Of a DNA stretch of 64,000 nucleotides, positions 1 to 53,433 are shown one piece after another. The stretch's first letter is position 1, and every line of letters starts with the position of its first letter. The position numbers and the translations under genes were made by a program. The notes under the pieces are model-generated. The model was not told the DNA's origin. It ran no database searches and saw only the letters and a program-made list of their open reading frames with translations. The DNA comes from a virus: positions 32,001 through 96,000 of IMG/VR virus record IMGVR_UViG_3300031857_016023. One strand, written 5' to 3'.

Positions 1-1465
1 AGATATTATATTCTTGATTTCCGTATTCACAATTAAAACCTAAATCCATAGCACGAACGGCACCTGATTCAGTAAAACCATAAACAACAAACGGAATGTT
101 CACTTTGCGGCAGAACATCGACAATACCAAAATCTGCTCAATAGAACCAGACATATTCTTTGACATTGAACCTGAACGGTCAAGTAACAATACCAGGCCA
201 TGCGATTTGCCTTTGGGTGTCATCATTACTTTACGGAAAATGTTGTCATCAAATTTGTACGATGATAATTTGTTAATGTCAATATCGCCTGTGTCAGACA
301 GTTTAGATTTACTAAATGCTTTGGCAGCCTTACGCATTTCAAATTCTTTCGCAAGTAGACCAATGTACCGCTCATTACGGCGTTTGAATTCATTGACCAA
401 CTCCATTGCTTTTTCTGGTTTAAGGTATTTCTCTTTAACGAACTTGGCATATTCTTTTGTCATCAACTCCTGAACTCGCTTCGCAGGTGTAATGATATTG
501 TTCATGTTTGGCTTAGGAATATCCACATACAAAAACTCTTTGCACTTATCATCAAGCAATTGCACTTCGTTACGGCGATAGTTTTGATCCGTTTCACAAG
601 TAGGGTCAAATTGGTCAACATCACCAGGATGAGATTCTTTATCGTGGTTAATGCTATTACCATTCTCTAATTCATCGTCACCTGGTTCTTCACCACCAGC
701 TTGACTGCGTTTAGATTTAGTATCGCCTTCTTCAAACTCATCACTTGGAGAATTGCCTTCACCTTTACCATCTTCATCATCTTCACCGTCATCACCATAG
801 TCAGAATCATAATCAGACATATCATAGCCGTCATCATCGCTTTCATCGGCCATATTCGCCATCATGTCATCATAATACTGTAATGCCATTTCATGTTGTT
901 CTTCTTTTGAATACTCATACACCTTGTTAGTGATACGAACAACATCGTCCCAGGTTTCTGCAGCCTGAACTTCTTTCACCAATAATTCTTCTTTAGCAGA
1001 GAATTGAATCCATGTGGAAGACCATTGTGATTTGCTGAATAGATTCAGTCGGTCAATAAATGGCATTTCGTTTACCTCACGACCTTTAATACCAAAGAAA
1101 TCACGGATATTTAATTCTTGGTATGCTTGACGGAAAGAAGAATTTAAACCAGGATATTTGCGTTTAACTTTCTTTTCGATACGAGCATCTTCAATGACAT
1201 TCAAAAAGTTTTTGTAATTTTTGTTCTTGTCATTGTCCATCACCGCATCGTGCCAACCTTCGGCAGGAGTATAGAGAGCATGACCAACTTCATGGCCAAC
1301 CAACAGGTCATAGATAATACCTGTCATGTTTTGCCAGATAGGCAAATAGAGAATACGATTCTTGGTATCAAATTTAGCGGTGTTGATTTTCTGGTGCTGA
1401 ACCGAAAGATTCTCGGTTGCCAGTAATTTCGCTAATTGGGATTTTTGTTCGGCAGTAAAAGACAT
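1..1465 (-). CDS. CobT-like metallopeptidase + vWA domain protein (runs off window start; absent from ORF track)
   Basis: Hand translation from ATG at 1465 gives MSFTAEQKSQLAKLLATENL...HEVGHALYTP (HExxH), NVIEDARIE, an acidic linker, then LLLDRSGSM (MIDAS DxSxS). GAGG RBS and a consensus promoter lie upstream. Confidence 0.85.
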   Translation of the reverse strand, partial: MSFTAEQKSQLAKLLATENLSVQHQKINTAKFDTKNRILYLPIWQNMTGIIYDLLVGHEVGHALYTPAEGWHDAVMDNDKNKNYKNFLNVIEDARIEKKVKRKYPGLNSSFRQAYQELNIRDFFGIKGREVNEMPFIDRLNLFSKSQWSSTWIQFSAKEELLVKEVQAAETWDDVVRITNKVYEYSKEEQHEMALQYYDDMMANMADESDDDGYDMSDYDSDYGDDGEDDEDGKGEGNSPSDEFEEGDTKSKRSQAGGEEPGDDELENGNSINHDKESHPGDVDQFDPTCETDQNYRRNEVQLLDDKCKEFLYVDIPKPNMNNIITPAKRVQELMTKEYAKFVKEKYLKPEKAMELVNEFKRRNERYIGLLAKEFEMRKAAKAFSKSKLSDTGDIDINKLSSYKFDDNIFRKVMMTPKGKSHGLVLLLDRSGSMSKNMSGSIEQILVLSMFCRKVNIPFVVYGFTESGAVRAMDLGFNCEYGNQEYNI

Positions 1466-1492
1466 AATACCCTCATTCATTATTATTTAACC

Positions 1493-1521
1493 ATTATAAC
1501 ATTACCCGGCCTGCCTGTCAA
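1493..1521 (-). promoter_or_regulatory. sigma70-type early promoter
   Basis: TTGACA-17 nt-TATAAT, a perfect consensus, 28 nt upstream of the ATG at 1465. Confidence 0.9.
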
Positions 1522-1595: not shown

Positions 1596-1659
1596 TGGAG
1601 CGGTTAACAGGAGTTAAACCTGTCTGCCTACGGGGGTAGGCTGTTCTCGGACTCACCGC
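1596..1659 (-). ncRNA. Non-canonical tRNA-Gly-like RNA (64 nt, no D stem, encoded CCA)
   Basis: GCGGTGA GTCCGAGAACA GCCTAC CCCC GTAGGC AG ACAGG TTTAACT CCTGT TAACCGC T CCA. Acceptor stem has 6/7 pairs, T stem is 5 bp with a 7-nt loop, the anticodon-like hairpin is C-rich, discriminator is U73. TATAAT at 1670-1675 lies upstream. Confidence 0.75.
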
Positions 1660-1681
1660 ATGAAAGGATATTATACGCTAC

Positions 1682-2959
1682 TTATCGACCCACTTGAGGC
1701 AGATATTTAGCCTTTGTTTCTTCCCATGATAACACGGTAAGGTCATCATAGAAAAGAGTGTCAGAAGAAACTCTGCCTTTTTTAACCAACTGCTTGATTC
1801 TTGGTTTGGCGTGCTTCTCTTTCCATATATTACTTAGGCTTTCTACATCAGTATTAAACAACTTTTTCATATCTTTGCCATCATTATCGCCTCGGAGAAA
1901 TTCACAAGTCTTATCATACAGAGGCGCAAAGTAAATGCCTCTTGCATGTTCAGAACGAATCAAATCTTTTGGCACACTTAACTTAGCATAAGCAAAAGAC
2001 AATGAACGATTTTTGTGGTCACGCTTATGAGGTTGACCACTTGGTTTCTTTGCAACATACCATTCAAAATACTTCCGTGTATGATTCACTTTCAACCACT
2101 CACGAATCATATACCGAGTTTCTTGTAATGGTTCAAACGATACTGAACCTGAGGTAAAGCCCATTGGCTGCCAGAAATCCAGATTATCATATTGAGATAA
2201 ACCACCAGCTTTTGTTTTACCATAAAGTGATGTTGTTGTGATACTTACCAACTTATCACCATATAGTTTCTCCCATAATTGTTGTATGGGTGTGGCTAAA
2301 CAAAGCAAAGCCAACAATTTACCACCAACATAATTAAAACCAAGAGGTTGTAATGGCACAATCGTAGAACCAATTGCAGTATGGTTAATCATACCACCTT
2401 GTGTTTTCTTTTCTCTACTCCAACCAATAAAGTTATCTCTTGGTGTTAAATCTAAAAAGTCAGATGAAATACAAATAACACCAAGGTATTTCTGTGTTGG
2501 TTTATCTTTAACAATAAAGTTTAGATTACGACCAATGTTAGCATTGTTTTTCATTGTAGAAGAAAAGGTACGAATACAATTCCACAATTCAGGTAAGTCA
2601 TCCTGTTTATTCGCATACACCAGTTCAGGTTCTAATGCCAAGTATGCTTCGGGATCATTTGGTATCCAAAAGTTATTTTTTATTTCCTGAATAGCACGGC
2701 GTTGGCCTTCATCTTCCAATAATCGTTCTTCACCCCATAAAGTTTGTGATACGATAGATGGATATTTCTCCTGCACCTCACACCACTTCTGAAACAAGGT
2801 ATACTCTTTCACATCCATTTGTGAAACATAACCTAGTTCTTTAATGGTCTGCTCACGCAGTTCATCTTCGGTGAAAGACAATGGTTGAATTGGCGTTTGT
2901 TCTTGCCATTTTTGCCATTGGGTTTCTACATCATCTTTTGGATCAAAGCTGTATGCCAT
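1682..2959 (-). CDS. DUF4338 / Druantia DruA-like protein
   Basis: Motifs GRNLNFIVKD..LGVICISSD..RDNFIGW, VPLQPLGFNYVGGKLLALL and ITTTSLYG...SQYD. Confidence 0.7.
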   Translation of the reverse strand: MAYSFDPKDDVETQWQKWQEQTPIQPLSFTEDELREQTIKELGYVSQMDVKEYTLFQKWCEVQEKYPSIVSQTLWGEERLLEDEGQRRAIQEIKNNFWIPNDPEAYLALEPELVYANKQDDLPELWNCIRTFSSTMKNNANIGRNLNFIVKDKPTQKYLGVICISSDFLDLTPRDNFIGWSREKKTQGGMINHTAIGSTIVPLQPLGFNYVGGKLLALLCLATPIQQLWEKLYGDKLVSITTTSLYGKTKAGGLSQYDNLDFWQPMGFTSGSVSFEPLQETRYMIREWLKVNHTRKYFEWYVAKKPSGQPHKRDHKNRSLSFAYAKLSVPKDLIRSEHARGIYFAPLYDKTCEFLRGDNDGKDMKKLFNTDVESLSNIWKEKHAKPRIKQLVKKGRVSSDTLFYDDLTVLSWEETKAKYLPQVGR

Positions 2960-3533
2960 TGCCTGTCTTTTTATGGTTGCGAATTGCTTTTTTAACTATC
3001 TTATTTTGTTTTCGTTTAGCGACTTGTAGTGCGACTGGTCCTACATTGTCAGTAAATTTTTTACCATTCATGTGTTCTAATTCATGGACAAAACACCGAG
3101 CAGTTATTCCCTTTAATGTTGTTTGTTGTAATTCCCCATTTTCATCGGTATATTCAACAACAACTGATTCTGGTCTTGCTATTTTAAGATATAAACCAGG
3201 GTAGGAGAGGCAACCTTCATCTATTTTAACAACATCATCCAAAACCGATATTACTTTTGGGTTAATACAAGCCATTTGGAAATCATCAGTACCAATTACA
3301 AACACCCTTTCATATACACCGCATTGATTAGCAGATAATCCAATACCACCATAAAGTTTTCTGGTTAATTGTAACCGCTTAATCAAGTTTGACATATGTG
3401 GATTTGGTAGAGAACCTTTATACTCAGGCATTTCAGCAGCTAACATCGGATGATCACCTTCATATAAAGGTAATCTGTTTATAGGTTCTTCTACTATGCC
3501 TAAACCAGTATCAATTTTTAAAATATCATTCAT
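2943..3533 (-). CDS. def: Peptide deformylase
   Basis: All three PDF motifs: GIGLSANQ, EGCLS, HELEH. Confidence 0.95.
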   Translation of the reverse strand: MNDILKIDTGLGIVEEPINRLPLYEGDHPMLAAEMPEYKGSLPNPHMSNLIKRLQLTRKLYGGIGLSANQCGVYERVFVIGTDDFQMACINPKVISVLDDVVKIDEGCLSYPGLYLKIARPESVVVEYTDENGELQQTTLKGITARCFVHELEHMNGKKFTDNVGPVALQVAKRKQNKIVKKAIRNHKKTGNGIQL

Positions 3534-6489: not shown

Positions 6490-7119
6490 TCAATAATTAG
6501 TTACTTTATAATCGGACAAACAATATAAAGAATCACGAGCACCATCAAAAATTTTGTTGTAACCTATATCTTTCATTAGCTGGTCAAATTCACCACGATT
6601 GGTGCCTGTTAAATAATGTTCAAATGTTACCACTTCAGCCCAAACACATTTAGGTTTACAATCACCAACATTTTGAAATACTTTTAATTCAGCACCTTCA
6701 ACATCGATGTGAACAAAGTCAGGTATGACATTAAACCTTTTGCAAAATGTTTCTAAACGAATTGCTTTAGCATCATATGGTTCACCATAAATTTTACCAT
6801 GATTGTCTTGTGGATTTACTGTAAAGATACTGCCAGAATCTGGATGATGGTGGCCGTTTTGTGTTAGTGATGGATTAAATGGTATTGTTCCATCAACATG
6901 ACAAACAGCAGCATGAAAATAATGGATGCCATTATCAAATGCTCGTTTAGAATTGTTTTCATACCATTCATTCGAACATTCAAAGGCATAGATTTTAGCC
7001 CTTGGAATTTCTTGTCTAACTTTTATGGAATCATCCATATTCATACAACCAACATCAAAGAAAACAAAATTGTTCTCATCAAAATTTTGTTTGACCCAAT
7101 TTAAATTTAAATCACTCAT
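6490..7119 (-). CDS. FkbM-family methyltransferase
   Basis: FFDVGC, IYAFEC, HIDVEGAELKV. Confidence 0.8.
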   Translation of the reverse strand: MSDLNLNWVKQNFDENNFVFFDVGCMNMDDSIKVRQEIPRAKIYAFECSNEWYENNSKRAFDNGIHYFHAAVCHVDGTIPFNPSLTQNGHHHPDSGSIFTVNPQDNHGKIYGEPYDAKAIRLETFCKRFNVIPDFVHIDVEGAELKVFQNVGDCKPKCVWAEVVTFEHYLTGTNRGEFDQLMKDIGYNKIFDGARDSLYCLSDYKVTNY

Positions 7120-7294
7120 TTATTTTTACCTTTAAACTTTGTATTTCGTCTTTAAGCCTAAGTTTTCTTTTCTTAATCATGGTAACTAATCTATCTTCAC
7201 CATAATGTTTTATTTGTTCAGCTAATTGAACATCCAATTCATCATGTTCTTGCTGTAAATGTTTGATATGATTTTTTATTTTTTCTGCATCCAT
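7112..7294 (-). CDS. DUF465/YdcH-like small coiled-coil protein
   Basis: HLQQEHDELD...IKKRKLRLKDEI. Confidence 0.75.
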   Translation of the reverse strand: MDAEKIKNHIKHLQQEHDELDVQLAEQIKHYGEDRLVTMIKKRKLRLKDEIQSLKVKINE

Positions 7295-7426
7295 TTACCA
7301 CTCCAAAGCTTTAATATCTGACATATCACATGGGTTTTCTTTACTGCAATTCTTATGCACATAATAGATTAAAGGTACACAAGCGGTCATTGTAACACAA
7401 ATAAACAAAATAATCAAGCGTTTCAA
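7295..7426 (-). CDS. Putative 43-aa lipoprotein (not in ORF track)
   Basis: TTG start overlaps the gp55 stop. Translation MKRLIILFICVTMTA-CVPLIYYVHKNCSKENPCDMSDIKALEW. Its TAA abuts the next ATG. Confidence 0.6.
   Translation of the reverse strand: MKRLIILFICVTMTACVPLIYYVHKNCSKENPCDMSDIKALEW
7389..7417 (-). promoter_or_regulatory. sigma70-type promoter upstream of the DUF465-FkbM-gp47-gp46 genes
   Basis: TTGATT-17 nt-TACAAT. Confidence 0.55.
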
Positions 7427-7965
7427 GGCAAATCTTCTTCAATAAATTTTTCTAAACCTTTAGTCTTGCCTTCTTTCTTCTTGCGTTTATTTTCTTCAAA
7501 ATTGTAGATGAATTCGGAGATGTTTTCATAAAGTTCAAACTGCCTCATATTTCCGTTCTCATCTTCCATCATTTCAAACTCATCTAATATACCAAACTGT
7601 TCTGTTGCCTTATATTTGACATACAGTTGTTTCTTTTCTTTCATAATACGGCGAAGAAATGCGTAGTAGATGATCTGTGTAAAGTAAGCAAATGGGTTCT
7701 TTGATTTGTCAGGATCAAAGTTACGAAAATACATAAGGCAGTTTTCAATACCATCTGCAATCATCTCATCTCGGAAAGAATATGATATGAAGTTGGGTTT
7801 GCGTGACAGGTGGTCAGCAATCTTTAGAAAACACTCACCAATATAATTTGGTATTTGTGGATCTGGCTTGTTTTTCTTTTTGGCCTCATCACAAGCCTTC
7901 TTGTATTCAATCAATGCTGATAGAAAATCGGCATTGTTCACATAATGTTTAGTTGCTTTTGTCAT
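7423..7965 (-). CDS. gp55: Late-transcription sigma factor
   Basis: HYVNNADF, YIGECFLKIA, NFISYSFRDEMIADGIEN, NPFAYFTQI. Confidence 0.97.
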   Translation of the reverse strand: MTKATKHYVNNADFLSALIEYKKACDEAKKKNKPDPQIPNYIGECFLKIADHLSRKPNFISYSFRDEMIADGIENCLMYFRNFDPDKSKNPFAYFTQIIYYAFLRRIMKEKKQLYVKYKATEQFGILDEFEMMEDENGNMRQFELYENISEFIYNFEENKRKKKEGKTKGLEKFIEEDLP

Positions 7966-8404
7966 CTTCGCCTCTTTTTACGCTTGACATATGTAATAAT
8001 GGTGGTGTTCCGGTTGCAAGTAATTTATTACTAACTATATCCAGGAGCTTAAACACTCTCTTTCTATAATCAAATCCTAACATTGAAGCTTTCTCCCCTT
8101 TATTATAAGGTGGTGTTCTTCCTGTTGAGTGATACTGATCCGCTGTAATGTCAATTCTTTCTCCTTCTTTAGTAACTGCCCACCAATGCCAGATACCTTC
8201 ATCATCCAAACCACGGTATAACTTAATGTTCTTACTACCAAACAATTTCTGTAAACAAGCAGAAGCGGTATGACAATGACCAAACATAGGATTTGTAGAG
8301 TTTCTTTCCACCCACTTCTTAGGTAAAAGGTCTGGCGTTAAGTGTTTGGTAATTATATCACAAGCCTTATCTAAAAGCAAGCGGTTATATTCAAACATTT
8401 CCAT
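7949..8404 (-). CDS. Hypothetical protein, YunG-like with possible Cys-His-Asp triad
   Basis: GHCHTAS..LQKLFG, HWWAV, IDITADQY. Confidence 0.55.
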   Translation of the reverse strand: MEMFEYNRLLLDKACDIITKHLTPDLLPKKWVERNSTNPMFGHCHTASACLQKLFGSKNIKLYRGLDDEGIWHWWAVTKEGERIDITADQYHSTGRTPPYNKGEKASMLGFDYRKRVFKLLDIVSNKLLATGTPPLLHMSSVKRGEDDKSN

Positions 8405-9314
8405 ATTTGGTATTCTTTAGCATGGCATATCCTTTAAGTAACTCTTGAATACCCATATCTAAATCAAAGTTAGGTTTAAATCCTTCCTTTTCAATCTTTT
8501 CATTGGAGACCATGTAGTTTCTTTGGTCTTTATCTTTACCAATTTCTGCTTCAACAATTTCAAATCGTGGTACATATTTTTTAATCGTATCACACAGTTC
8601 ACGCTTTGATACATTGGCAGATGAAAGGCCTATATTATAAATTTGGCCTCTCATATTCTTATTTTCTAATGCCATTGTAAATGCTTGGCATACATCTAAT
8701 ACATGAATATAATTTCGTTTAAAGTGTGATTCAAATAACACAACGAAACCATCATTGACAGCACGGTAAGTCATATCATTTACCAACAAATCAATTCTCA
8801 TTCTTGGTGACATACCAAATACAGTTGCAAGCCTAAAACTTGTGGCATTTGGATGTTCCATCAAAACCTTTTCTACTTCTACTTTATCTTTAGCATATCT
8901 AGAAATAGGATTCAATGGTGAATTTTCATCACAATAATCACCTGTACCATAAGCACTATTGGTAGTAGGCATCAAAACAATTTGTTCTTGTGACAGGTAC
9001 TTCATCATCATAAAAATAGCATCTCTGTTTGTAGAAGATGCTCCAATTGGATCTCTATCACATAAAGGTGCACCAACATAAGCTGCAAGAGGTATAATTA
9101 TATCAGCTTGTTTTAGAATTGGCAATAGGTCTGCTTCTACTCTTACATCACCACGATAAATCCTAAAATTTGGGTGATAGCATAATTGGCCAAGTGATGA
9201 TTGTTGGTACATAAAATTATCTAACACAGTAACATTATGACCTAAACCTAATAGGTCTTGTGATAACATCGACCCAATATAACCTGCACCACCTGTAACT
9301 AATATATTTGCCAT
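8391..9314 (-). CDS. NAD-dependent epimerase/dehydratase/reductase (extended SDR)
   Basis: TGGAGYIG, YAKDK (YxxxK), RLATVFG. Confidence 0.9.
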   Translation of the reverse strand: MANILVTGGAGYIGSMLSQDLLGLGHNVTVLDNFMYQQSSLGQLCYHPNFRIYRGDVRVEADLLPILKQADIIIPLAAYVGAPLCDRDPIGASSTNRDAIFMMMKYLSQEQIVLMPTTNSAYGTGDYCDENSPLNPISRYAKDKVEVEKVLMEHPNATSFRLATVFGMSPRMRIDLLVNDMTYRAVNDGFVVLFESHFKRNYIHVLDVCQAFTMALENKNMRGQIYNIGLSSANVSKRELCDTIKKYVPRFEIVEAEIGKDKDQRNYMVSNEKIEKEGFKPNFDLDMGIQELLKGYAMLKNTKYGNV

Positions 9315-9315
9315 A

Positions 9316-10485
9316 TTAAGCCTCGTTTAATGTTTTGGTAATAAAATCAATTTCATCTAATTGCATTGATGGGAAATTACCAATATAAAATCCATAAAAA
9401 TGAATATGTTCAGTATTTGGAAAATTCAAATGATAGTTTTCTGGCACAATATTTTTAAGGTATGGTTGTCTTGTTTGATTACCACCACCTGCACTTCCAC
9501 GGCGAAATTCAATGCCTTCTTCTTTCATTCTCGTCATAATTCTATTTGCGAAATCTTGGTCTTTATCATTGAGTATTAGATTGAAAGCATAGTTACTAGA
9601 GCCTATTAATTTAAAGCCAGTAAAAAATTTCTTTGGGCTTAACTTAGATAAAAACCTTTCGTGATTTCTATTCCGTAGTTTAACATTTTCATTTAATTTT
9701 GGCAACTGTGAAAGACCAAGTATACCGCCTAAATCGGTGTTACGCATATTGTATGCTGGGTAAGCAAAGATAAAATCAGGATTCAACTGTGGGTATTGTA
9801 TCTTGTAAGCCAGTTTCATTTTTTCATTACCACATTCTCTGACCATACCATGTGAACGAAGCATGCGAATTGTATTGTAAACTTCTTCATCGTTGGTACA
9901 AACCATACCGCCTTCAATCGTTGTCATATGGTGTGCGTAATAGAAAGAGAAATTGGACATCCATCCAATACTGCCGCAAAGCTTCTCTCCGTGTCTTGCG
10001 CCATGCGACTCGCAAACATCTTCAATCAATGGAATGTTGTTTCTAGCTAGAGTTGATATGAGATCATCAGTTAATGCATTAAACCCTTGAATATGTGATA
10101 AAAATACAGCACGGGTATTTGGAGTAATTGCACGAATGATAGAATCAGGATTCATACCTAAAGTGTCCATATCCACATCAACGAATACTGGTGTAAATCC
10201 ACATTGAATCACAGAGGCAACATCAGATATCCATGTTAAAGGTGGAACAATTACTTCACCGCCTTGTGGATATTTTATCTTCAACATGGTCATTGATAAT
10301 AAATTGGCAGATGCGCCAGAGTTTACAAATACGGAATACTTTACGCCTAACCATTTCGACCAAGCTTCTTCAAACTCTCGGCATTTTGGACCGTTAGTTA
10401 GAATAGGGTCATCTTGTTTTAGATGCTCAATCATGGCATCTAAATCTTGTCTTGTAACATTATTTCTCATCAAAGGAAATTTCAT
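9316..10485 (-). CDS. DegT/DnrJ-family PLP enzyme, ColD/E1-type 3-dehydratase
   Basis: VNSGASAN, EDVCESHG, SFYYAHHMTTIEGG (His at the usual Schiff-base Lys position). Confidence 0.85.
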   Translation of the reverse strand: MKFPLMRNNVTRQDLDAMIEHLKQDDPILTNGPKCREFEEAWSKWLGVKYSVFVNSGASANLLSMTMLKIKYPQGGEVIVPPLTWISDVASVIQCGFTPVFVDVDMDTLGMNPDSIIRAITPNTRAVFLSHIQGFNALTDDLISTLARNNIPLIEDVCESHGARHGEKLCGSIGWMSNFSFYYAHHMTTIEGGMVCTNDEEVYNTIRMLRSHGMVRECGNEKMKLAYKIQYPQLNPDFIFAYPAYNMRNTDLGGILGLSQLPKLNENVKLRNRNHERFLSKLSPKKFFTGFKLIGSSNYAFNLILNDKDQDFANRIMTRMKEEGIEFRRGSAGGGNQTRQPYLKNIVPENYHLNFPNTEHIHFYGFYIGNFPSMQLDEIDFITKTLNEA

Positions 10486-10492
10486 TTTAACC

Positions 10493-11482
10493 TCACGAAT
10501 TGTTTAATATAACTTGAGTACCATGATTATCGAACTTAAATGGCACCCATACCTTTATTTGTTCCATCTTTAACTTGAATTCTTTTTGTTGATCTGGCGG
10601 CACAAGAAACATAAAGAAACCGCCGCCGCCTGCACCCATTAGTTTACCACCATAAGCACCACTTTCAATGGCTGTATAATATATGTCATCTATCCATGGT
10701 TCAGTAACACCATCTGCTAGACCTCGTTTAATTTCCCAAGCTTTGTGCATCAACTCACCTATTATAAACATTTCTTTTTCTTTGGCAAGCATATCGATAG
10801 CTTCGTTTGCTAAGTTTACCGTTTCTAATAAAAGACTATCTGTTTTGCCTTCTTTGATATTATCTACCTTTTTCTTTGCTTGAATTTCTGAGTGTCGAGA
10901 AACACCAGAAAAACCAAGCATGATGTGTGATTCTAGATATGTTTTATAATCTAAATTCATTTTAAATGATTTGGCATCCCAACCTTCACTCGACATAGAA
11001 ATAACTTGAATACCGCCAAGTGCAGACATAATTTGATCTTGTATGCCAACATTTTCGCCAATAATATCTTGTTCAACTTCAATGGCTCTTTCTGCTAATT
11101 CTTTCTGTGTTAAATTATATTTCTTTAAACGATAGATTGCATTTAACAAACCTACTGTAAAGGTTGATGATGAACCAATACCAGACCTTGCAGGTAAATC
11201 ACCTTCATGGCTAATAGAAATGTTTTCTGTTATATTGGTGTATTGCAAACAAGCACGTATAGCTGGGTGATCAATATCTTCTATTGAATTAACATTTTCT
11301 ATTTTTGAATAAGTTAAACGAATGGTATGGTCAAAAAATGGCGGCAATTCTTTTATATGAACATAACAGTAATGTGCCATTGCAGCAGATATACATTTAC
11401 TTGGATGTTTTGAAAACCAAGCAGGGTAATCGGTGCCGCCACCAAACAAAGAAAGTCTATAAGGAGTTTTTGTAATAATCAT
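10493..11482 (-). CDS. GHMP sugar kinase (HddA/heptose-7-phosphate kinase-like)
   Basis: RLSLFGGGTDYP, LPARSGIGSSS, GIQDQ, GGKLMGAGGGGF. Confidence 0.9.
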   Translation of the reverse strand: MIITKTPYRLSLFGGGTDYPAWFSKHPSKCISAAMAHYCYVHIKELPPFFDHTIRLTYSKIENVNSIEDIDHPAIRACLQYTNITENISISHEGDLPARSGIGSSSTFTVGLLNAIYRLKKYNLTQKELAERAIEVEQDIIGENVGIQDQIMSALGGIQVISMSSEGWDAKSFKMNLDYKTYLESHIMLGFSGVSRHSEIQAKKKVDNIKEGKTDSLLLETVNLANEAIDMLAKEKEMFIIGELMHKAWEIKRGLADGVTEPWIDDIYYTAIESGAYGGKLMGAGGGGFFMFLVPPDQQKEFKLKMEQIKVWVPFKFDNHGTQVILNNS

Positions 11483-12009
11483 TTTTCATTGTAATAGTCA
11501 CCCCACTCTACAAGAATTGTTGAACGATTATCATCACGCAACAATGCTTTTACATAAGCAGGAAAAATTTGAAAGGGTTCATCTAAACGGATAACTTCAA
11601 CCGTTTTACACATCGATTTAAATGCTTCAGTAAAATCTCCCACATGTTGACATTGTGGGTGTAAAGGTCTTTCTGAACCAATACTGGTACGAATAATCAC
11701 ATTGGCCTTATACTTAGACATTAAGGAAAGTTTATCCACATGATTTACTAATTGACTAACAGCACATAGTAAAAAGTTCCATCGTGGATAAATTGAAATT
11801 GGAATACGACCATGTAATGCCATACCTAATGACATACCCATTTGCATTTCTTCTGCAACAGGCAATTCAATAAGTTTATCTTTCGATACATCTTTTAGTG
11901 TGTTAGACATTCCTGTGCCTGGTACAGCAACCGCTTGGCCAAGAAAAACAGTTCTATCATCGTTAGCCAAATATTCCATTGACCGTTTTAATTCATCAAA
12001 GTATTTCAA
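11479..12009 (-). CDS. TPP enzyme, E1-beta/transketolase pyrimidine-binding domain (short)
   Basis: VFLGQAV, ELPVAEEMQMGMSLGMALHG, HPQCQH. Confidence 0.85.
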   Translation of the reverse strand: MKYFDELKRSMEYLANDDRTVFLGQAVAVPGTGMSNTLKDVSKDKLIELPVAEEMQMGMSLGMALHGRIPISIYPRWNFLLCAVSQLVNHVDKLSLMSKYKANVIIRTSIGSERPLHPQCQHVGDFTEAFKSMCKTVEVIRLDEPFQIFPAYVKALLRDDNRSTILVEWGDYYNEK

Positions 12010-12605
12010 AATTGTACCCTCACTCCAGCACCAGCATGTGGATATTTGGTTTCGTATTTGTAATAGTAAATCATATCGGTATTATAATTTTCATAAGACA
12101 ATTCTTTATCATTCCATACTTCTCTTGTATCTGTACAAACTGATTTACCATTATCTTCAATAATAAATTTAATAGGTAAATTATATTGAATTGCATACTT
12201 CATTGATTCATATGCAATTCCTGTTTCTGAAGTCATATCACCTAAAAAACAATAAACTTTAGAATCACCATTACTTTTTTTAATTGACATAGCTGTACCT
12301 ACTGCAATTGGCAAAACTCCACCCACAATAGCAGAAGAATATATTTTATATTCTGGAAAACAAAGTGAGATAGAACGACCTTCTAAAATTTCTTTTTCTA
12401 TTTCATCAGCAGGCACACCTTTTAGTAAGCATTGATAGTGTGAACGCCAAGAACAAAATACCCAATCTTGTTGGCGAACATCTTTAAATACATTAATTAG
12501 TTCATCTTCATTACCATAATAGAGATGAACCGGTGATCGTATTTTTCCATTATTAAATTGGTCAGCAATACGATTTTCAAAATCAATTAGTTCTTGTTTA
12601 GTCAC
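12006..12605 (-). CDS. TPP enzyme, E1-alpha-like subunit (short)
   Basis: HLYYGNE, WRSH, AIVGGVLPIAVG, GDM...EDN TPP-binding motif. Confidence 0.85.
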   Translation of the reverse strand: MTKQELIDFENRIADQFNNGKIRSPVHLYYGNEDELINVFKDVRQQDWVFCSWRSHYQCLLKGVPADEIEKEILEGRSISLCFPEYKIYSSAIVGGVLPIAVGTAMSIKKSNGDSKVYCFLGDMTSETGIAYESMKYAIQYNLPIKFIIEDNGKSVCTDTREVWNDKELSYENYNTDMIYYYKYETKYPHAGAGVRVQF

Positions 12606-14112
12606 CTAATATTTTCCTTTTCAAACGAATCTTTGACATTTCCTCTACATTCTGCCTTGATTGTAGGCCAAATTTATTTTCTACTAATTCTAAAAATGGT
12701 TTGTGTGAGAAGTAAGTATGCCATGCATCATCACGAAACTTTAATACTTCGGCACCAGATAACGATTTAGTTCTCAATGGTTTACAATCATATGATAAGA
12801 AAGCAAACTCATCAAAAGTTTGTGGCAATTCCCAATTATTGTTTTTGGCTTCCATATACAATGGACTACCAGGTAATGCCATTGCTGCATAGAAGTTTGC
12901 GTGTTCACAGTTTAATTCTAAAGCTAAATCTAAAGTTTCTTGCATCGTTTCTTTGGTATCTTCTGGAAATCCAAACATATAATTACCAAGAACATTAATG
13001 TCAGCGTCTTTAATTTGTTTTACAACTTCACGGATGTTTACTTGTTTGAATCTACCTTTGTCAATTTCTAAACGCACTTGTTGATTACCTGATTCAATGC
13101 CAAGTGCCAACCAATTTACGCCAGCATCTTTAAACAATTTCAGTTGATCTTCACGAACAGAATCTACTCTTGCATAAGCCCAAAAGTTAAATTTCATTCC
13201 TCTAGCCACAATGCCTTGTAATATTGGCACATAATATTTTTTATTTAAAAAGAACATCTCGTCTGTAAGGCGAATAGTTCTAACTCCATTTTCATACAGG
13301 TACTCTAATTCTTTTAACATTAATTCTGCTGACCAGAATCTCATACCACGACTATCAGCTGATACGATACCTTCTTCGTATGAAGTTCTATTCACGATGT
13401 TAATCATACAGAAGTTACAACCAAATTGGCAACCTAATGATGTATAAATTGCCGCAAACGGTGTACGGCCTTCTTCTAAAAAATTAGTATGCCAATAGTG
13501 AGCTCTGTATTTGTCTAAAAGGTTCTTATCTTTAGGTAATAAGTCCCAAGCATAACCTGGCATTATAACATCCATGTCATCAGTCTTTACTATACAACCG
13601 CTTGTTGTAGGTCTTGGAAGTCCATGTTTTTTATACCACATACCACGAACATTATCTAAATCATTTTCTAAATCTGTTTCTAATAAATCTAAAAGACCAT
13701 ATACACCTTCATTGATAAAAGCAAAGTCAACATACTTGTATTGAATTACCTCATGTGGTAATGCAGATGTATGTGACCCAATAAATGCAGTTTTTAAATT
13801 TGGATGTGATAATTTGAGTTGAGTAGCCAGAGATTTGGCACCAATCATCATTGTGGTGCCTGAATTTGGATTTTGTCCGTAGAGAACAAATACTACCAGT
13901 TTTGGTTTTGTTGCTGCGATTTGTTCTGCCGCATCTTCATCAGTTGCAGGACAAGCATCAAAATCTAAAATGCATGGATCATGGCCTTTAACACGAACTG
14001 CGGATGCCAGCAATGCTGCCCATGTAGGCATTTCAATTGCTGAATATGTTTTTGCTAAATCTTGGTAGGCTTTTGCGGCACTACTTGGTACCACGAAACA
14101 CACATTTGCCAT
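12598..14112 (-). CDS. Cobalamin-binding radical SAM enzyme
   Basis: N-terminal B12-binding-like domain (IGSHTSALP, EG), CQFGCNFC, LTDEMF, GIESG, MFGFPEDT. Confidence 0.9.
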   Translation of the reverse strand: MANVCFVVPSSAAKAYQDLAKTYSAIEMPTWAALLASAVRVKGHDPCILDFDACPATDEDAAEQIAATKPKLVVFVLYGQNPNSGTTMMIGAKSLATQLKLSHPNLKTAFIGSHTSALPHEVIQYKYVDFAFINEGVYGLLDLLETDLENDLDNVRGMWYKKHGLPRPTTSGCIVKTDDMDVIMPGYAWDLLPKDKNLLDKYRAHYWHTNFLEEGRTPFAAIYTSLGCQFGCNFCMINIVNRTSYEEGIVSADSRGMRFWSAELMLKELEYLYENGVRTIRLTDEMFFLNKKYYVPILQGIVARGMKFNFWAYARVDSVREDQLKLFKDAGVNWLALGIESGNQQVRLEIDKGRFKQVNIREVVKQIKDADINVLGNYMFGFPEDTKETMQETLDLALELNCEHANFYAAMALPGSPLYMEAKNNNWELPQTFDEFAFLSYDCKPLRTKSLSGAEVLKFRDDAWHTYFSHKPFLELVENKFGLQSRQNVEEMSKIRLKRKILGD

Positions 14113-27931: not shown

Positions 27932-28366
27932 TTATTTTGTGATGCTACGAAGCATCCATTGGTGTTTACTATGAGTATCAATACGACCTGCAATAAAATC
28001 AGCAAGCCCTTGTTTGTCAAATTGATCTGCTAATTTAAAAGCAACATTTAAAGTGGCAAGAACTCTTTCGTTATCAGTCATTAAACGGCGAGCCATTTCT
28101 ACACCTGCAGGTACAGAAGTTTCATCTTCAATCTCTGATAGTTCCATAAAACGAGTGAAAGAACCTGGTGCATATGTGTCTAAAGAACGAATCTGTTCGG
28201 CAATTGGATCTACCGCACCATGCAGTTCTTCATAGAGATTACCAAAGAATTCATGGTATTGTGGAAAATTAGAACCTTCCACATTCCAATGGTAGTTGTG
28301 AGCTTTAAGGTATAATGCAAAAGTATCTGCAAGAACCTTCTTCATTATTTCTTGTAAAGTTTCCAT
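27932..28366 (-). CDS. dps: Dps-family ferritin-like DNA-protection protein
   Basis: LYLKAHNYHWNVEG..F..YHEFF..LYEE...DPIAEQIR, KHQWML. Confidence 0.93.
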   Translation of the reverse strand: METLQEIMKKVLADTFALYLKAHNYHWNVEGSNFPQYHEFFGNLYEELHGAVDPIAEQIRSLDTYAPGSFTRFMELSEIEDETSVPAGVEMARRLMTDNERVLATLNVAFKLADQFDKQGLADFIAGRIDTHSKHQWMLRSITK

Positions 28367-28790: not shown

Positions 28791-31700
28791 TTAATATTCT
28801 GGAAGATCATTACCATTTTCGGGATCAACATTTGCTTTTTTGATAAACAAAACTAACGATCCACCAGGCTTTATATCAACCCATTTATCATAAGGGCTAA
28901 TATATCCTACTTGTACAGGACTACTCCTATAGGCATTAGAATTGTCAACAGTATAACCATGAATTCCGACATTCCCACCCCAGGCCCACATAGTACCATT
29001 GGTTTTCATAGCTCCAGCTGCACCGTGAGCATCAAATGTCATATGCCAATTAGTATTGGCACCAATTTGATTAGGTGAAGATCGGCTAACGCCACCCCCT
29101 TCAGAATTACCTGTGATGCCGTATAATTGACTCCCAGTCGCCCAAAGTGTTCCATCTGTTTTAACAAAAAGAAGGTTTTGGTTTAAAAGTGTAACCGATT
29201 TCCAATTAGTTTCAGTACCTAATTGTGTTGGAGATGACCTTCTTACAACTACTCCTTCATTTAATCCAAGTTTACCGTAAGCATTTCCACCCCATAACCA
29301 AAGTGTTCCATCATCTTTTAAAGCAGCTTTGCCACCATTTCCTATTCTGTCCGAAAATAATTTTTTCCAACCAGCATATGTTCCAACTTGAGTTGGACTT
29401 GATCTATTGGCTGTATCATTAAGACCTAATTGAGCAACAGCATTTTTTCCCCAAGTCCATAAAGTTCCAGTACCTTTTAAAGCCATTACACTATCAACAC
29501 TAGCTATAACATCTGTCCAAGTATTACTTGTTCCTATTTGCACAGGTGAAGAAAATGCAGCATTAAAAGCACCATCTAAACCTAATTCTCCACTTGATTG
29601 TGTGCCCCAACCCCAAAGTGTTCCATCCATCTTTAAAGCAACAGTAAAATCTAATCCTTTACTGACAGTTCTCCAACTACCACCTCCAAGGACTTGTACA
29701 GGAGAACTTATATAATTAGTTGCATTATCACCTCTTTGACCACCAGTTCCCGTTCCCCAAGACCATAAAGTGCCATCTGTTTTGATGGCTGATCCTGTTT
29801 TTATTTGGGTATAACCTGCACCTGTAGCCAATTTTTTCCAATTTGTAGCTGTTGTAAGTTGAACTGGTGAAGAAATATTTTGGCCTGGACGTCCTAGTAA
29901 AATACCATTACTGAAACCGTCACTACCAATTCCCCACAATTGTCTTTCAGGACCACCACTACCACTAGAAGCCGCCGCAGCTGCAGCATTGGCCGCAGCA
30001 AAGGCACCGTTAGCATATACACCAGCAGAAGTAGCATTGACATTTGCTGAGTTAGCAGCTGTAAATGCAGCAGTAATAGAATTGTTTTGTGTTATATTTG
30101 TAGTAGTAGCTGCATTAGCAGCAGCAAAGGCACCATTAGCATAAACTCCAGCAGAAGTAGCAATGACACTTACTGTATTGGAATTAGCAAAGGCACCGTT
30201 AGCATAAACTCCAGCAGAAGTAGCAACGGCATTTGCTGAGTTAGCAGCTGTAAAAGCAGCATTAGCATGGATAAAAGAACTGTTAGCATGAATAAAAGAA
30301 CTGTTAGCATGAATGAAAGCAGCATTAGCATGATTTCTAGCAAAACTATCAGAAGCGAATAAAGCTGCATTTGCAGCTGCAAAAGCACCATTAGCGTAAA
30401 TACCAGCAGAATTAGCAGCTATGAAAGCATTGTTAGCATGAATGAAAGCAGCATTAGCAACAGCAAAAGCACCAACACTATTAGCTGCATTAGCTAATGC
30501 AGAATGACTAATAATTACAATATTGCCATTAGAAAAATTAGCTGAAGCTCCGTTTTCATATTTGTAAATTTTACCTTCAGCTGACGTAGGAACTTTCCAA
30601 TATACAGAACCAGCAAATTTAGGGGTACTGCTATAAGATGCGCCAGTTATAGAACTTGTATTAGCAGTAGAAACATAAGCTACATTTCCTGTAAATTCAG
30701 TATTACTATCATCAAGAAGTCTAAAGTAACTAGAACTTCCACTACGATCTTGGTTAAAATTAAAATCAAAAACATATGTTTGACCTGATATAACATATAT
30801 TGTTGGGTAATTTCCTGAATATTGATCTATTTGCCAATTGGCTCCACTAGCTCCTTCAGTAATTCTAAATTTTGTAGCTGCAGGTGTTAATGATCTATAA
30901 ATTGCTGTGTTTGATGCGGTATTAGCAGCACTAAATGCAAGACCACCATCAGCTGGACTTTGTACTCTAATAGAACCAAAAATTGAATTATATGTGGTAT
31001 CACCGTAGCCAAGAGTGGTATTACCAACTAAACTGGTAGGTGCGGTCCAATATAAAATACCATTTGTATATCCAGATGTTGCATTTGAAGTAACTACTCC
31101 AGAAGATGAAACGTGTGTAACTCCTGAGAGAGCACTACCGCTTGCAAAAGGAGAAGCGGTATATAATTTAAAACCACCAAAACCAGAACCTTCTATAGCA
31201 CTAACGTCAAAAGCATATGTTTGCCCAGCAATAACATTTAATGTTGGGCTATTAGCTGTTGGACCAGCAATATCAGGAAATCTATAACGAAAAGAAATTC
31301 CGCCTTCTTGGAAAACAACAAGTCTTTGTTTTGTAGCTGAAATAAAATTTGTTCTATAAGCAATATTAGCAGTATTATTGGCAGTATTTGCTGTCAAAAA
31401 CGCTGCGTTAGCAGTATTTCTTGCAACTTGATCTGCTCCACTAGCATTGTTAGCAGCTAAAAATGCAGCATCAGCAGTATTTTGTGCATTGGTAATATTG
31501 GTATTCTGTGTAGCATTAACACCAGCTTCATTGTTAGCTGCTGCAAAAGCAGCTGTAATGCTATTATTTTGTGTAGTGTTTATACCATCAATATTATTAG
31601 CAGAAGCAAAAGATGCATTTGCTGTATTATAAGCACCATCAATATATGTTTGTAAATTTTGGTTGTTTAATGTAATTAATTGAGTTTTTAAGTTAGCATT

Positions 31701-46539: not shown

Positions 46540-47367
46540 CTAATTTAAACCCATTTCTTGACGAATTTTAGTGGCTGATATTGAATGAATTGTATCATCA
46601 AAGGTTTCTTGTTCGATTTTATAACCAACATCTCGTCCATAGGTTATATTGACAATATTTGGCACAAGAAGAATTTCATATTGACCTTGATAAAGGGGGT
46701 CGAGGTCTTTCTTAATGAGTTCTTTAACTTGGTTTGACGCAAAAGGATTTGATCCATTCCAACCTTGGCAATCACGAATCATAATTACAACTTGTCCTGT
46801 CTTAGAGATTGCTCTATCAAATAAAGCCCTATGCCCTTTATGCCAAGGTTGCCATCTACCTAACATTTGAACAGTTTCTTTCTTCCAATCAAAAGTTGGC
46901 CGGCGCCGGTCAGAAAGTATATGGTCACCAACAAATTCTACCCACTTCTCCGCATTTTGTTCTGTTATACGAAAATCATAAACCTCTGGAGGAACAAAAA
47001 CTTTATTTGTATCTTCAAATCTACCTTTTTCGATTGTGTCGATCCATATGGTCCAATCTGCTTTAAAATTATGCCTCATTTCTGGTAATGGAGCTATAAA
47101 ATCTGCAATAACAAAATCTTTTAAAAAAGAATCTGCTAACTCTCTCATTCTGATTGATTGACGTATTCTGCCTTCATTAGAGAAATCCCAATCATTATAT
47201 TTTTTTCTTACATCGTCTGCATTTATCCACTTAACTTTAGCTCTAGTTTCACCAACATTATCAGCCATATTAAAAAATTCTGAATGATCCTCTAGATATT
47301 TTTTTAATTTTTCTGCAAAATATGTTTTACCAGATCCTGGTAATCCCATTATCAATATTCTTTTCAT
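46540..47367 (-). CDS. APS kinase (CysC)-like P-loop domain fused to an HxGH nucleotidyltransferase domain
   Basis: GLPGSGKT, NADDVR..DWDFSNEGR; C-terminal LGRWQPWHKGH and ISATKIR. Confidence 0.85.
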   Translation of the reverse strand: MKRILIMGLPGSGKTYFAEKLKKYLEDHSEFFNMADNVGETRAKVKWINADDVRKKYNDWDFSNEGRIRQSIRMRELADSFLKDFVIADFIAPLPEMRHNFKADWTIWIDTIEKGRFEDTNKVFVPPEVYDFRITEQNAEKWVEFVGDHILSDRRRPTFDWKKETVQMLGRWQPWHKGHRALFDRAISKTGQVVIMIRDCQGWNGSNPFASNQVKELIKKDLDPLYQGQYEILLVPNIVNITYGRDVGYKIEQETFDDTIHSISATKIRQEMGLN

Positions 47368-48155
47368 ATTTTATAATCTTTCTCCATTTCAACAAAACGA
47401 TTGTAAAGTTCTTCTCCTAAAATTTCTTTTGGATCTTTAGCTGTCTTTTGTAGTTTTGGCCTAATTGTATGTAATCCTTCAATACCCCAAGCAAGTAAAT
47501 CAGCATCCTGCGTATCATTTTCTATATCATCAAAATTATAATTCCATTTTGGTAGTTCTAAAAATTCTTCAATTTTTTGTATTTGTTTTATTGGTTGATT
47601 AATAAGATCATCATAATTCACAATTACAATTTTGTTTGGCGCCTCTATTTTAATTTGTTTTAAAACTTCCATATCTTCTTTAACTATTTCATACCAGATA
47701 AATCCCATTCGAGTATCATCATTTATTAAACAGTTATTTTCGTGTAGTATCTTATCTACATTTGAAGTTATATCTTTTTTAATTAATGAAAGCCAACTTG
47801 CCATTACACTTGGTAAATCTCTTTCTGTTACTATAGCTTTCATTTCTCTACCAAATAATTCCGAAGCATATAACATATTTTTTCCCCAAGCTCTGTCTTT
47901 ATCGATTATTATTGGTTCTGAACGATGTTTCCAAAAAGCAGGAAGTATTGCTTTTGTTATATTATTAATTTGTTCAACAAAACGATTTGCATTAACTGCT
48001 GGTTCTTTATCCCATATTTCTTGAAGTTTTGAAGTTACTTGAAGCATAGGAGAAGTTGGAGTAACATAAACATTTGGATTCTGATTTAAAATTGAAGCTA
48101 AAACAGTTGATCCTGATCTTGATAGTCCTGCCATAAAGTGATAAGTTTTATCCAT
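47364..48155 (-). CDS. Sulfotransferase family protein
   Basis: GLSRSGSTVLASILNQNP (5'-PSB), RDLPSVMAS (3'-PB), VNYDDL. Confidence 0.85.
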   Translation of the reverse strand: MDKTYHFMAGLSRSGSTVLASILNQNPNVYVTPTSPMLQVTSKLQEIWDKEPAVNANRFVEQINNITKAILPAFWKHRSEPIIIDKDRAWGKNMLYASELFGREMKAIVTERDLPSVMASWLSLIKKDITSNVDKILHENNCLINDDTRMGFIWYEIVKEDMEVLKQIKIEAPNKIVIVNYDDLINQPIKQIQKIEEFLELPKWNYNFDDIENDTQDADLLAWGIEGLHTIRPKLQKTAKDPKEILGEELYNRFVEMEKDYKI

Positions 48156-52195: not shown

Positions 52196-52201
52196 TTTGT
52201 T

Positions 52202-53428: not shown

Positions 53429-53433
53429 TTGTA

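Follow-up and report, generated by a model that had tools for sequence, protein, structure and literature searches.

The locus described here lies in a 64,000-nucleotide (nt) stretch of viral DNA, positions 32,001 to 96,000 of IMG/VR virus record IMGVR_UViG_3300031857_016023, which is referred to as the window throughout; the record as a whole has 123,821 bp, 35.2% G+C and an estimated completeness of 69%. On the minus strand of the window, the gene for a DruA/DUF4338-family enzyme is followed by a short RNA gene that resembles a glycine transfer RNA (tRNA-Gly) but lacks the features needed for decoding. Here, we investigated this RNA, its relatives in uncultured phages and the adjoining enzyme, and we weigh the reading that the RNA is a private glycyl donor for the enzyme, to which we assign a probability of about 0.45. 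The original prediction had placed a tRNA-Gly-like element 22 nt past the stop codon of the gene, which encodes 425 amino acids (aa), on the same strand; every coordinate proved correct, and the fold and the covariation reported below back a structured RNA. The features on which the argument rests are the following.

1682..2959, minus strand: gene for a DruA/DUF4338-family enzyme with GNAT fold, 425 aa, stop codon at 1682-1684 (open reading frame)
1596..1659, minus strand: tRNA-Gly-like RNA, 64 nt, non-canonical, type A (sequence, fold, covariation and a covariance model match of 87.4 bits)
1600..1604, minus strand: 3' strand of the acceptor stem, pairing with 1655-1659 (G1-C, C2-G, G3-C, G4-C, U5-A)
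1627..1640, minus strand: equivalent of the anticodon arm, 5-bp stem with a 4-nt CCCC loop (1632-1635), double changes in 3/5 pairs
1607..1623, minus strand: equivalent of the T arm, 5-bp stem with a 7-nt loop UUUAACU (1612-1618), double changes in 3/5 pairs
1670..1675, minus strand: TATAAT -10 hexamer, 10 nt 5' of G1 (read from the sequence)

The stop codon of the enzyme gene and the first nucleotide of the RNA, G1 (1659), are separated by exactly 22 nt (1660-1681) on their common strand.

Structure and detectability of the 64-nt RNA

Read on the minus strand, the RNA runs GCGG...CCGCUCCA, with G1 at 1659, the discriminator U at 1599 and CCA at 1596-1598, and it is the sole copy in the 123.8-kb record. 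Folded as a single sequence, it forms a closed three-way junction of -22.9 kcal/mol (z -3.5), and none of 200 shuffled sequences folded as well. When 22 distinct type A sequences were tested against the cloverleaf read from those same sequences, pairing was found in 396/396 cells (100%), with two-sided changes at 7 of the 18 pairs (41 cells); the covariation score was reached by 0/500 shuffles, and slid controls paired in 36-55% only. Acceptor pairs 1-4 are invariant in these sequences and pair 5 covaries (UA in 16, AU in 6). Across the RNA types described below, 98.3% of 354 cells pair and two-sided changes occur at 10/18 pairs, as scored in a model-fitted alignment that leans towards structure. 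We regard it as nearly certain that this is a real structured RNA gene.

Of the features of a canonical tRNA, the acceptor stem, the discriminator base, the 3' CCA and the four-helix cloverleaf are present, and the 7-nt anticodon loop with U33, the G18G19 of the D loop and the UUC of the T loop are absent. ARAGORN called no tRNA gene in the window, in the whole record or in 40 related loci; Rfam returned no tRNA match to the RNA at E<=10 and nothing above cut-off across the whole record. Because the standard detectors call no tRNA, 'tRNA-Gly-like' is to be understood as a reading of the architecture and the identity positions. When the locus and RNAs of types C and B were compared by blastn with 50,697 phage records, nothing matched. 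Metatranscriptome contigs (four runs from three studies) matched over small shares only, at 88-99% likeness; contig breakpoints at 1596 (contigs X6 and X7, one study) and at 1659 (X6) match the predicted ends, contigs by their nature being unable to show RNA ends or expression.

A family of RNAs with fixed ends and variable bodies

Searching all loci for the end signature GCGG...CCGCUCCA with a regular expression that fixed G1:C72, C2:G71, G3:C70 and G4:C69 but also allowed U at position 71 and C at position 73 yielded 204 distinct frames: 49 that ARAGORN called as tRNAs, 149 uncalled frames of 63-70 nt and 6 longer uncalled ones, which were set aside. The 149 distinct non-canonical RNAs, all from uncultured phage contigs, constitute the family considered here. 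With only the acceptor stem constrained, 135 of them fold into a three-hairpin cloverleaf, and the base at position -1 is U in 148/149. In type A, to which the window RNA belongs, the D arm has a stem of 3 bp and a loop of 3 nt, a 5-6-bp stem carries CCCC or CCCA and the T loop reads UUUAACU; in types B to E the interior is almost wholly different. Among the 135 folded members, the D loop has 3-5 nt in 133 and contains GG in none, and the middle loop, of 3-6 nt as folded and mostly 4-5 nt, contains CC in all. Their T loops start with UGC (40), UUU (39, including the window RNA), AGC (38), AUA (9), UUA (4), UGU (2) or other letters (3), and never with UUC, which opens the T loop in 30/32 canonical phage tRNA-Gly neighbours.

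Two loci, L004 and L005, have enzymes that are 98-99% identical and identical flanks, but the body is of type A in L004 and of type B in L005, and the type B body of L005 recurs in L044, whose enzyme is just 79% identical; this pattern indicates that the RNA body is exchanged as a cassette between conserved ends. As a separate observation, tandem pairs of mini tRNA-Gly genes, 2-3 nt apart, occur at five loci: L079 (1877-2015), L071 (1361-1500), L077, L078 and L080. The pairs of L079 and L071 have one shared promoter and a hairpin plus U-run terminator 3' of the second RNA.

Glycine identity and loss of decoding features

The determinants recognized by bacterial glycyl-tRNA synthetase (GlyRS) are given as G1:C72, C2:G71, C35, C36, U73 and a purine-4/pyrimidine-69 pair, together with a requirement for the tRNA arms and the L shape (PMC10464925). 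The acceptor-end letters are found in 149/149 RNAs, partly by definition of the search, and the CC of the middle loop in 135/135; the covariance model search of the loci brought up no RNAs with other ends. All 49 ARAGORN-called frames with the end signature are tRNA-Gly (UCC 36, GCC 12, ACC 1), and among the 28 tRNAs of phage XacN1 the acceptor signature is found in one, a tRNA-Gly. In many phages a gap of 3-7 nt separates the non-canonical RNA from canonical tRNA-Gly genes of 74-75 nt, and where a tRNA was called by ARAGORN within 15 nt, it was a tRNA-Gly in 38/39 cases, which indicates that the RNAs are paralogues of phage tRNA-Gly genes. The glycine assignment rests on identity positions and genomic kinship. 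Judged from sequence, the RNA is probably a GlyRS substrate, and CC in a loop of 4-5 nt may be read as C35/C36.

In the non-proteogenic tRNA-Gly species of staphylococci, UGC or UGU replaces the UUC of the T loop and the D and T regions are altered; these tRNAs are poor ligands of EF-Tu and the ribosome, and FmhB, FemA and FemB prefer them (PMC7826273). A T loop of this staphylococcal kind (UGC 40, UGU 2) is found in 42/135 members of the phage family.

Some features might suggest an odd but genuine decoding tRNA-Gly that supplements phage translation. Certain variants have a 7-nt middle loop, UGUCCAA, which contains UCC, and the 74-nt relative in Pelagibacter phage HTVC008M (L082, KC465899 91140-91213) is called tRNA-Gly(ACC) by ARAGORN and scores 49.5 bits in Rfam, being the only Rfam-detectable tRNA of that phage; its counterpart in Pelagibacter phage Mosig (MT647606 7779-7852) is detected by neither program. 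Both are Gly-type RNAs with an aberrant T loop, about 6.5 kb (Mosig) and 3.9 kb (HTVC008M) from the enzyme gene. However, the window RNA has a 4-nt CCCC loop, the 7-nt loops have G at the position where U33 is universal, GG in the D loop and UUC in the T loop are each found in 0/135 members, and canonical tRNA-Gly genes adjoin these RNAs in the same phages. A decoding role is accordingly considered very improbable for the family; for the window RNA itself, its sequence makes it quite likely that it is not a decoder.

Promoter and probable processing

The TATAAT hexamer 5' of the RNA has a counterpart in nearly all relatives, in which a -10 element ends 8-13 nt 5' of G1 in 102/106 distinct contexts; 57/107 contexts score at least 10/12 for the sigma-70 consensus TTGACA-N17-TATAAT. 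In the window the -35 is weak because the coding region overlaps its position, and a simple promoter scan of the window listed nothing at the -10 site of the RNA. A simple terminator was found in only 11/107 contexts, so the 3' end of the RNA is probably made by processing.

In loci L008, L014, L015 and L037 the RNA is located about 550-770 nt downstream, behind a gene on the opposite strand, and keeps its own TTGACT-N17-TATAAT promoter. The inserted opposite-strand open reading frames in L008 (4259-4705, 148 aa) and L014 (4258-4923, 221 aa) contain an HNH-like motif and repeated basic segments, and we presume that they are probably homing endonucleases. In L207, unlike in its relatives, the mini-tRNA 3' of the enzyme gene (about 2800-3018) is replaced by a promoter followed by a G+C-rich, structured-looking stretch.

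These data bear on the idea that the RNAs are functionless, decaying pseudogenes of phage tRNA-Gly. They are shortened relative to the adjoining canonical tRNA-Gly genes and unseen by tRNA detectors, as decaying copies might be, but compensatory changes preserve pairing across 149 distinct sequences, the identity positions are invariant, the U at -1 is kept in all but one of them, the promoters are conserved and the RNA persists at its site across enzyme divergence down to 59% identity. Decay is therefore a highly unlikely explanation.

Linkage between the RNA and the enzyme gene

Linkage was surveyed from both sides. Starting from the enzyme, 79 sources with at least 60 nt of downstream sequence (78 loci and the window) were inspected, and a related RNA was found within 260 nt of the enzyme stop codon in 71. 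Among the eight apparent exceptions, L008, L014, L015 and L037 have the RNA behind the inserted gene, as does the L016 contig; L009 and L017 were outside the model search, and L022 has just 188 nt downstream. Five RNA types occupy the site 3' of the enzyme gene.

Starting from the RNA, the type A signature alone was found in at least 120 stretches across IMG/VR, of which 80 loci were examined. Among these listed matches the enzyme gene lies directly upstream on the same strand in 77/77 assessable loci, with gaps of 23-65 nt in 71 and of 546-765 nt in 6; the three unassessable loci comprise two with too little upstream sequence and one whose RNA is truncated where the contig stops. None of the 80 loci had upstream room but no enzyme gene. 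With patterns for type C-like and B-like RNAs, 92 and 109 stretches were found, respectively, and 79 loci of each kind were examined. The enzyme gene is upstream in 32/79 (C-like) and 24/79 (B-like), within about 140 nt in 25 and 18 of these, the remainder being 7-10 kb off.

In a FastTree phylogeny of 138 enzyme rows, all RNA-adjacent loci fall into one clade of 107 rows (support 96), within which type B needs at least four changes and type C at least two. Large contigs that carry the RNA elsewhere were also inspected: 15/15 encode a full-length member of the enzyme family (E 1e-147 to 1e-152), including 4/4 that are at least 90% complete, and 14/15 also encode a second paralogue of about 370 aa. 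The record of the window likewise has a second, divergent DruA-family paralogue, located outside the window at G000:C1:14799-15596 (377-aa open frame, E 4e-40). The enzymes of ten such contigs that were checked fall in the clade earlier scored as having no adjacent RNA.

Fold of the enzyme and its relation to Mom

The 425-aa protein matches Pfam DruA (PF14236, DUF4338) at E 2e-20 and 73.6 bits (cut-off 27), its sole Pfam match at E<=1, as well as PADLOC DruA (1.1e-17) and phrog_19197; the enzyme family comprises 904 representatives at E<=1e-3. DUF4338 has been termed a GNAT domain by the Aravind laboratory, and DruA domains occur in DNA-centred settings, namely Druantia and a fusion to DndF (PMC10853773). 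Supplements aside, we found no description of DruA biochemistry in the literature.

An AlphaFold2 model built from a 53-sequence alignment reached a mean pLDDT of 94.5. Its GNAT core spans approximately residues 104-369, and structural alignment gave 236 chains at Z>=5, the top 50 being nearly all GNATs. The top match among 48,161 chains is Mom of phage Mu (8bv8_B, Z 9.9, root-mean-square deviation 4.0, 172/202 residues, model residues 104-358). In a second structural alignment Mom is again first (Z 9.8, 174 residues aligned), followed by SpeG at 9.3. The aligned span of Mom, 172-174 residues, compares with 132-158 for most other chains and up to 175 for Naa60. That Mom is a GNAT using Gly-tRNA-Gly, as brought up in the original prediction, is published: Mom moves glycine from Gly-tRNA-Gly to the N6 of adenine in double-stranded DNA, and its authors point to a possible cost of drawing on the host translation machinery (PMC13219725). 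The main text of that article makes no mention of DruA, DUF4338 or tRNA-like RNAs; GNATs acting on tRNA are described there as known, and GNAT toxins specific for tRNA-Gly are mentioned.

Proposed role of the RNA and alternative explanations

In the mechanism we propose, the RNA would be a paralogue of tRNA-Gly that is encoded by the phage and reduced in size; its transcription would start at its own -10 element or proceed by read-through from the enzyme gene, and it would be trimmed as a tRNA is. Host GlyRS would probably charge it with glycine, because every known bacterial GlyRS determinant is kept. The charged RNA should not work on the ribosome, since it is devoid of a 7-nt anticodon loop with U33, of GG in the D loop and of UUC in the T loop, and it may also evade EF-Tu. 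The DruA-family GNAT enzyme would then take the glycine from this carrier and pass it to an acceptor, and a private carrier would spare the translational pool of Gly-tRNA, as the staphylococcal non-proteogenic tRNA-Gly species do in conjunction with the Fem enzymes.

By analogy with Mom, the favoured acceptor would be a DNA base, the modification of which could shield the phage DNA from host nucleases. DNA is preferred because Mom is the top structural match, because DruA occurs in DNA-centred systems and because of an 'm6A' signal associated with Druantia, but the assignment is tentative and we would not expect it to hold with even odds. Type I Druantia is not known to contain a methyltransferase, a view that one preprint contradicts. 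Expression of type I Druantia is reported to give rise to a PacBio 'm6A' signal at CAGCTGNC (bioRxiv 10.1101/2024.04.14.589459), which we infer to be linked to DruA. Extending this line of thought, DruA-family GNATs at large, both the phage copies and Druantia DruA, might be aminoacyl-tRNA-dependent modifiers of nucleic acids, the minimal tRNA-Gly carriers might be orthogonal glycine donors in a two-gene DNA-hypermodification module of freshwater and marine T4-like phages, and the Druantia 'm6A' might be a glycine-derived N6-adenine adduct; this wider proposal is speculative and, taken as a whole, doubtful.

Several observations weigh against a private glycyl donor and are set out here with the explanations they would fit instead. 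The 77 loci with the enzyme gene upstream are not independent events, as adjacency maps to one clade, and it probably reflects one ancestral placement that was then inherited. Among the type C-like and B-like loci, 37/79 and 44/79, respectively, have at least 1,300 nt of upstream sequence yet no enzyme gene. The enzyme may belong to the core genes of this phage group, in which case its co-occurrence in the same genomes, assessed in RNA-bearing contigs only, would be uninformative. In two complete enzyme-bearing phages of the clade scored as having no adjacent RNA, the end-signature search found only canonical tRNA-Gly; the genome that encodes a cyanophage homologue of the enzyme has one canonical tRNA-Gly. 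Beyond the ends, the likeness of the RNA body to the 28 XacN1 tRNAs is not Gly-specific, in what is a small test with an atypical 86-nt gene as the reference tRNA-Gly. The original prediction had proposed looking for a conserved tRNA-like neighbour in homologous loci: by covariance model and loci survey the RNA is kept beside the gene in relatives, but the arrangement is lineage-specific, and elsewhere the RNA resides in tRNA-Gly clusters.

These linkage data would suit a mini tRNA-Gly that acts independently of the enzyme, for example by diverting, as a decoy or sponge, a host factor recognising tRNA-Gly or Gly-tRNA-Gly, the adjacency being an accident of one lineage; conceivable targets are a tRNA-targeting defence, a GNAT toxin acetylating Gly-tRNA-Gly, and GlyRS or its regulation. 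In many phages the RNA is indeed found in tRNA clusters beside canonical tRNA-Gly and away from the enzyme gene, adjacency is confined to one clade, cassette exchange renews the body fast between fixed ends, as if the body were targeted, and GNAT toxins specific for tRNA-Gly are on record (PMC13219725). On the other hand, all 15 large RNA-bearing contigs encode the enzyme, five RNA types have been kept at the site 3' of the enzyme gene even after insertion of an endonuclease gene, and a bait for an anticodon nuclease should keep a normal anticodon loop, whereas most loops here have 4-5 nt. On balance, such an enzyme-independent role is rather unlikely.

The structural comparison also leaves room for an enzyme of another kind. 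Ordinary GNATs score Z 9.0 and below in the first alignment; SpeG and other CoA-dependent (coenzyme A-dependent) GNATs come within about 1 Z of Mom, and rows within 1 Z are tied by the rule of the alignment tool. In Foldseek no PDB chain matched at E<=0.001; the weak matches were to GNATs, with Mom 24th at E 0.08. An hhalign comparison of the DruA-like family with a 29-sequence Mom alignment returned a probability of 0.14, that is, no relation, and phmmer and family-profile searches against PDB sequences found nothing useful, the profile search being without Mom. A Q-x-x-G...GGK stretch after strand 4 is kept (nearly invariant Q204, P205, G207 and G212-K214) and, judged from its sequence, could bind CoA. 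Of the Mom- or Fem-like fold put forward in the original prediction, the GNAT fold and the first rank of Mom have held up, but Mom shares that rank with ordinary GNATs, and FemA (1lrz) follows at Z 7.9 (rank 38). Because of the tie in Z and the lack of a profile-profile relation, the firm statement is limited to a GNAT fold that is Mom-like at best.

With CoA as its cofactor, the enzyme might have the RNA as its substrate or cofactor, acylating the RNA or its glycine in the manner of TmcA or of TacT/AtaT, or the RNA might serve as a scaffold or guide. The near tie of CoA-dependent GNATs with Mom, the conserved glycine-rich stretch after strand 4 and the existence of tRNA-acting GNATs (PMC13219725) are consistent with this, but DNA-centred systems contain DruA domains (Druantia, the DndF fusion), the span aligned with Mom is longer than for most other GNATs (Naa60 reaching 175), and there is little sense in a phage encoding both an RNA and an enzyme merely to modify that RNA. 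We consider this explanation improbable.

Comparison with known systems

If the RNA is indeed a private glycyl donor, its closest functional parallel would be the NP1-3 tRNA-Gly species of S. aureus and S. epidermidis, which are donors for FmhB, FemA and FemB. The two kinds exist in addition to normal tRNA-Gly as its paralogues, keep the GlyRS recognition positions and have altered D and T regions with UUC changed to UGC or UGU, here in 42/135 members; the shared idea is a non-ribosomal glycyl transferase that is kept from competing with translation. The RNAs described here differ in being phage-encoded, in their size (63-70 nt), in their D loop of 3-5 nt and mostly 4-5-nt 'anticodon' loops, in being missed by detectors and in the interchangeability of their several body types. 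A DruA-family GNAT, not a Fem enzyme, would be their partner, and their origin is independent.

Mom of phage Mu (Pfam PF25680, PDB 8bv8) is likewise a phage GNAT-fold enzyme linked to a glycine tRNA, the likeness being one of fold. It belongs to a Pfam family of its own as opposed to DruA, and the enzyme described here exceeds it by about 200 residues and is extended at both its N and its C terminus; Mom has its own insertion after strand 5 and the essential residues R111 and S124. Mom draws on the tRNA-Gly of the host, and there is no carrier gene in Mu. The DruA protein of type I Druantia shares the Pfam family PF14236/DUF4338 with the phage enzyme. The type I Druantia operon consists of druA and druB-druE, which include a large helicase. 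No Druantia operon is present at this locus, where the neighbours are genes for a peptide deformylase, gp46/gp47-like proteins and a peptidase, and the sole helicase of the window is UvsW-like. Ordinary tRNA genes of T4-like phages also have an encoded CCA and often occur in tRNA clusters, but the RNAs described here escape tRNA detection and have no decoding features.

Dedicated non-proteogenic tRNAs are described as so far known from only two staphylococci, S. aureus and S. epidermidis (PMC7826273), and we found no description in the literature, supplements aside, of a phage-encoded dedicated carrier tRNA. If the proposed role is correct, the RNA would be the first dedicated non-ribosomal tRNA beyond staphylococci and the first encoded by a virus, and it would suggest that abundant aquatic phages have a DNA modification not yet described. 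The family shows how far a tRNA can shrink with its synthetase identity kept, which is useful for orthogonal charging systems, and it reveals that a large class of tRNA-derived genes escapes standard tRNA finders. For the DruA family, the proposal amounts to a concrete biochemical hypothesis.

Gene neighbourhood and other features of the window

The record derives from a freshwater T4-like myovirus with gp46/gp47-like genes and genes for UvsW, UvsY, gp23, portal, sheath and terminase. By the DruA-like gene, its closest cultured relatives are the Pelagibacter phages Mosig (57% identity) and HTVC008M (55%). The genes flanking the locus and the promoter of the downstream gene are the following.

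2943..3533, minus strand: peptide deformylase gene (open reading frame; Pfam Pep_deformylase 4.3e-32), sharing 17 nt with the start of the enzyme gene
2-1480, minus strand: phrog_459 'peptidase', the next gene (phrog match)
1493..1521, minus strand: sigma-70 promoter scoring 12/12, serving the phrog_459 'peptidase' (promoter scan)

In Mosig, too, the peptide deformylase gene is followed by the DruA-like gene and then by that of the large 'peptidase' (phrog_459); in HTVC008M the DruA-like gene and the peptidase are retained, and the upstream gene is annotated only as 'hypothetical protein'. A protein N-terminus is also conceivable as the acceptor of the glycine.

Four further regions of the window, all on the minus strand, were recorded. 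A run of biosynthesis genes at 6490-14112 encodes an FkbM-type methyltransferase, a YunG-like protein, an NAD epimerase, a DegT-type aminotransferase and a GHMP kinase, as well as a split thiamine-diphosphate decarboxylase-like pair and a B12-binding radical SAM enzyme; its product could be a modified sugar or a phosphonate. Within the structural region, RCC1-like repeats occur in four proteins encoded at 28794-33980 and 50945-54651, of which one has 1,729 aa; the four are probably fibre or receptor-binding proteins. At 46543-48155, a gene for a P-loop kinase (APS-kinase/KTI12-like) adjoins a sulfotransferase gene, the two forming a possible sulfation module. Finally, a ferritin-like gene is located at 27935-28366, between the genes for the small and large terminase subunits.

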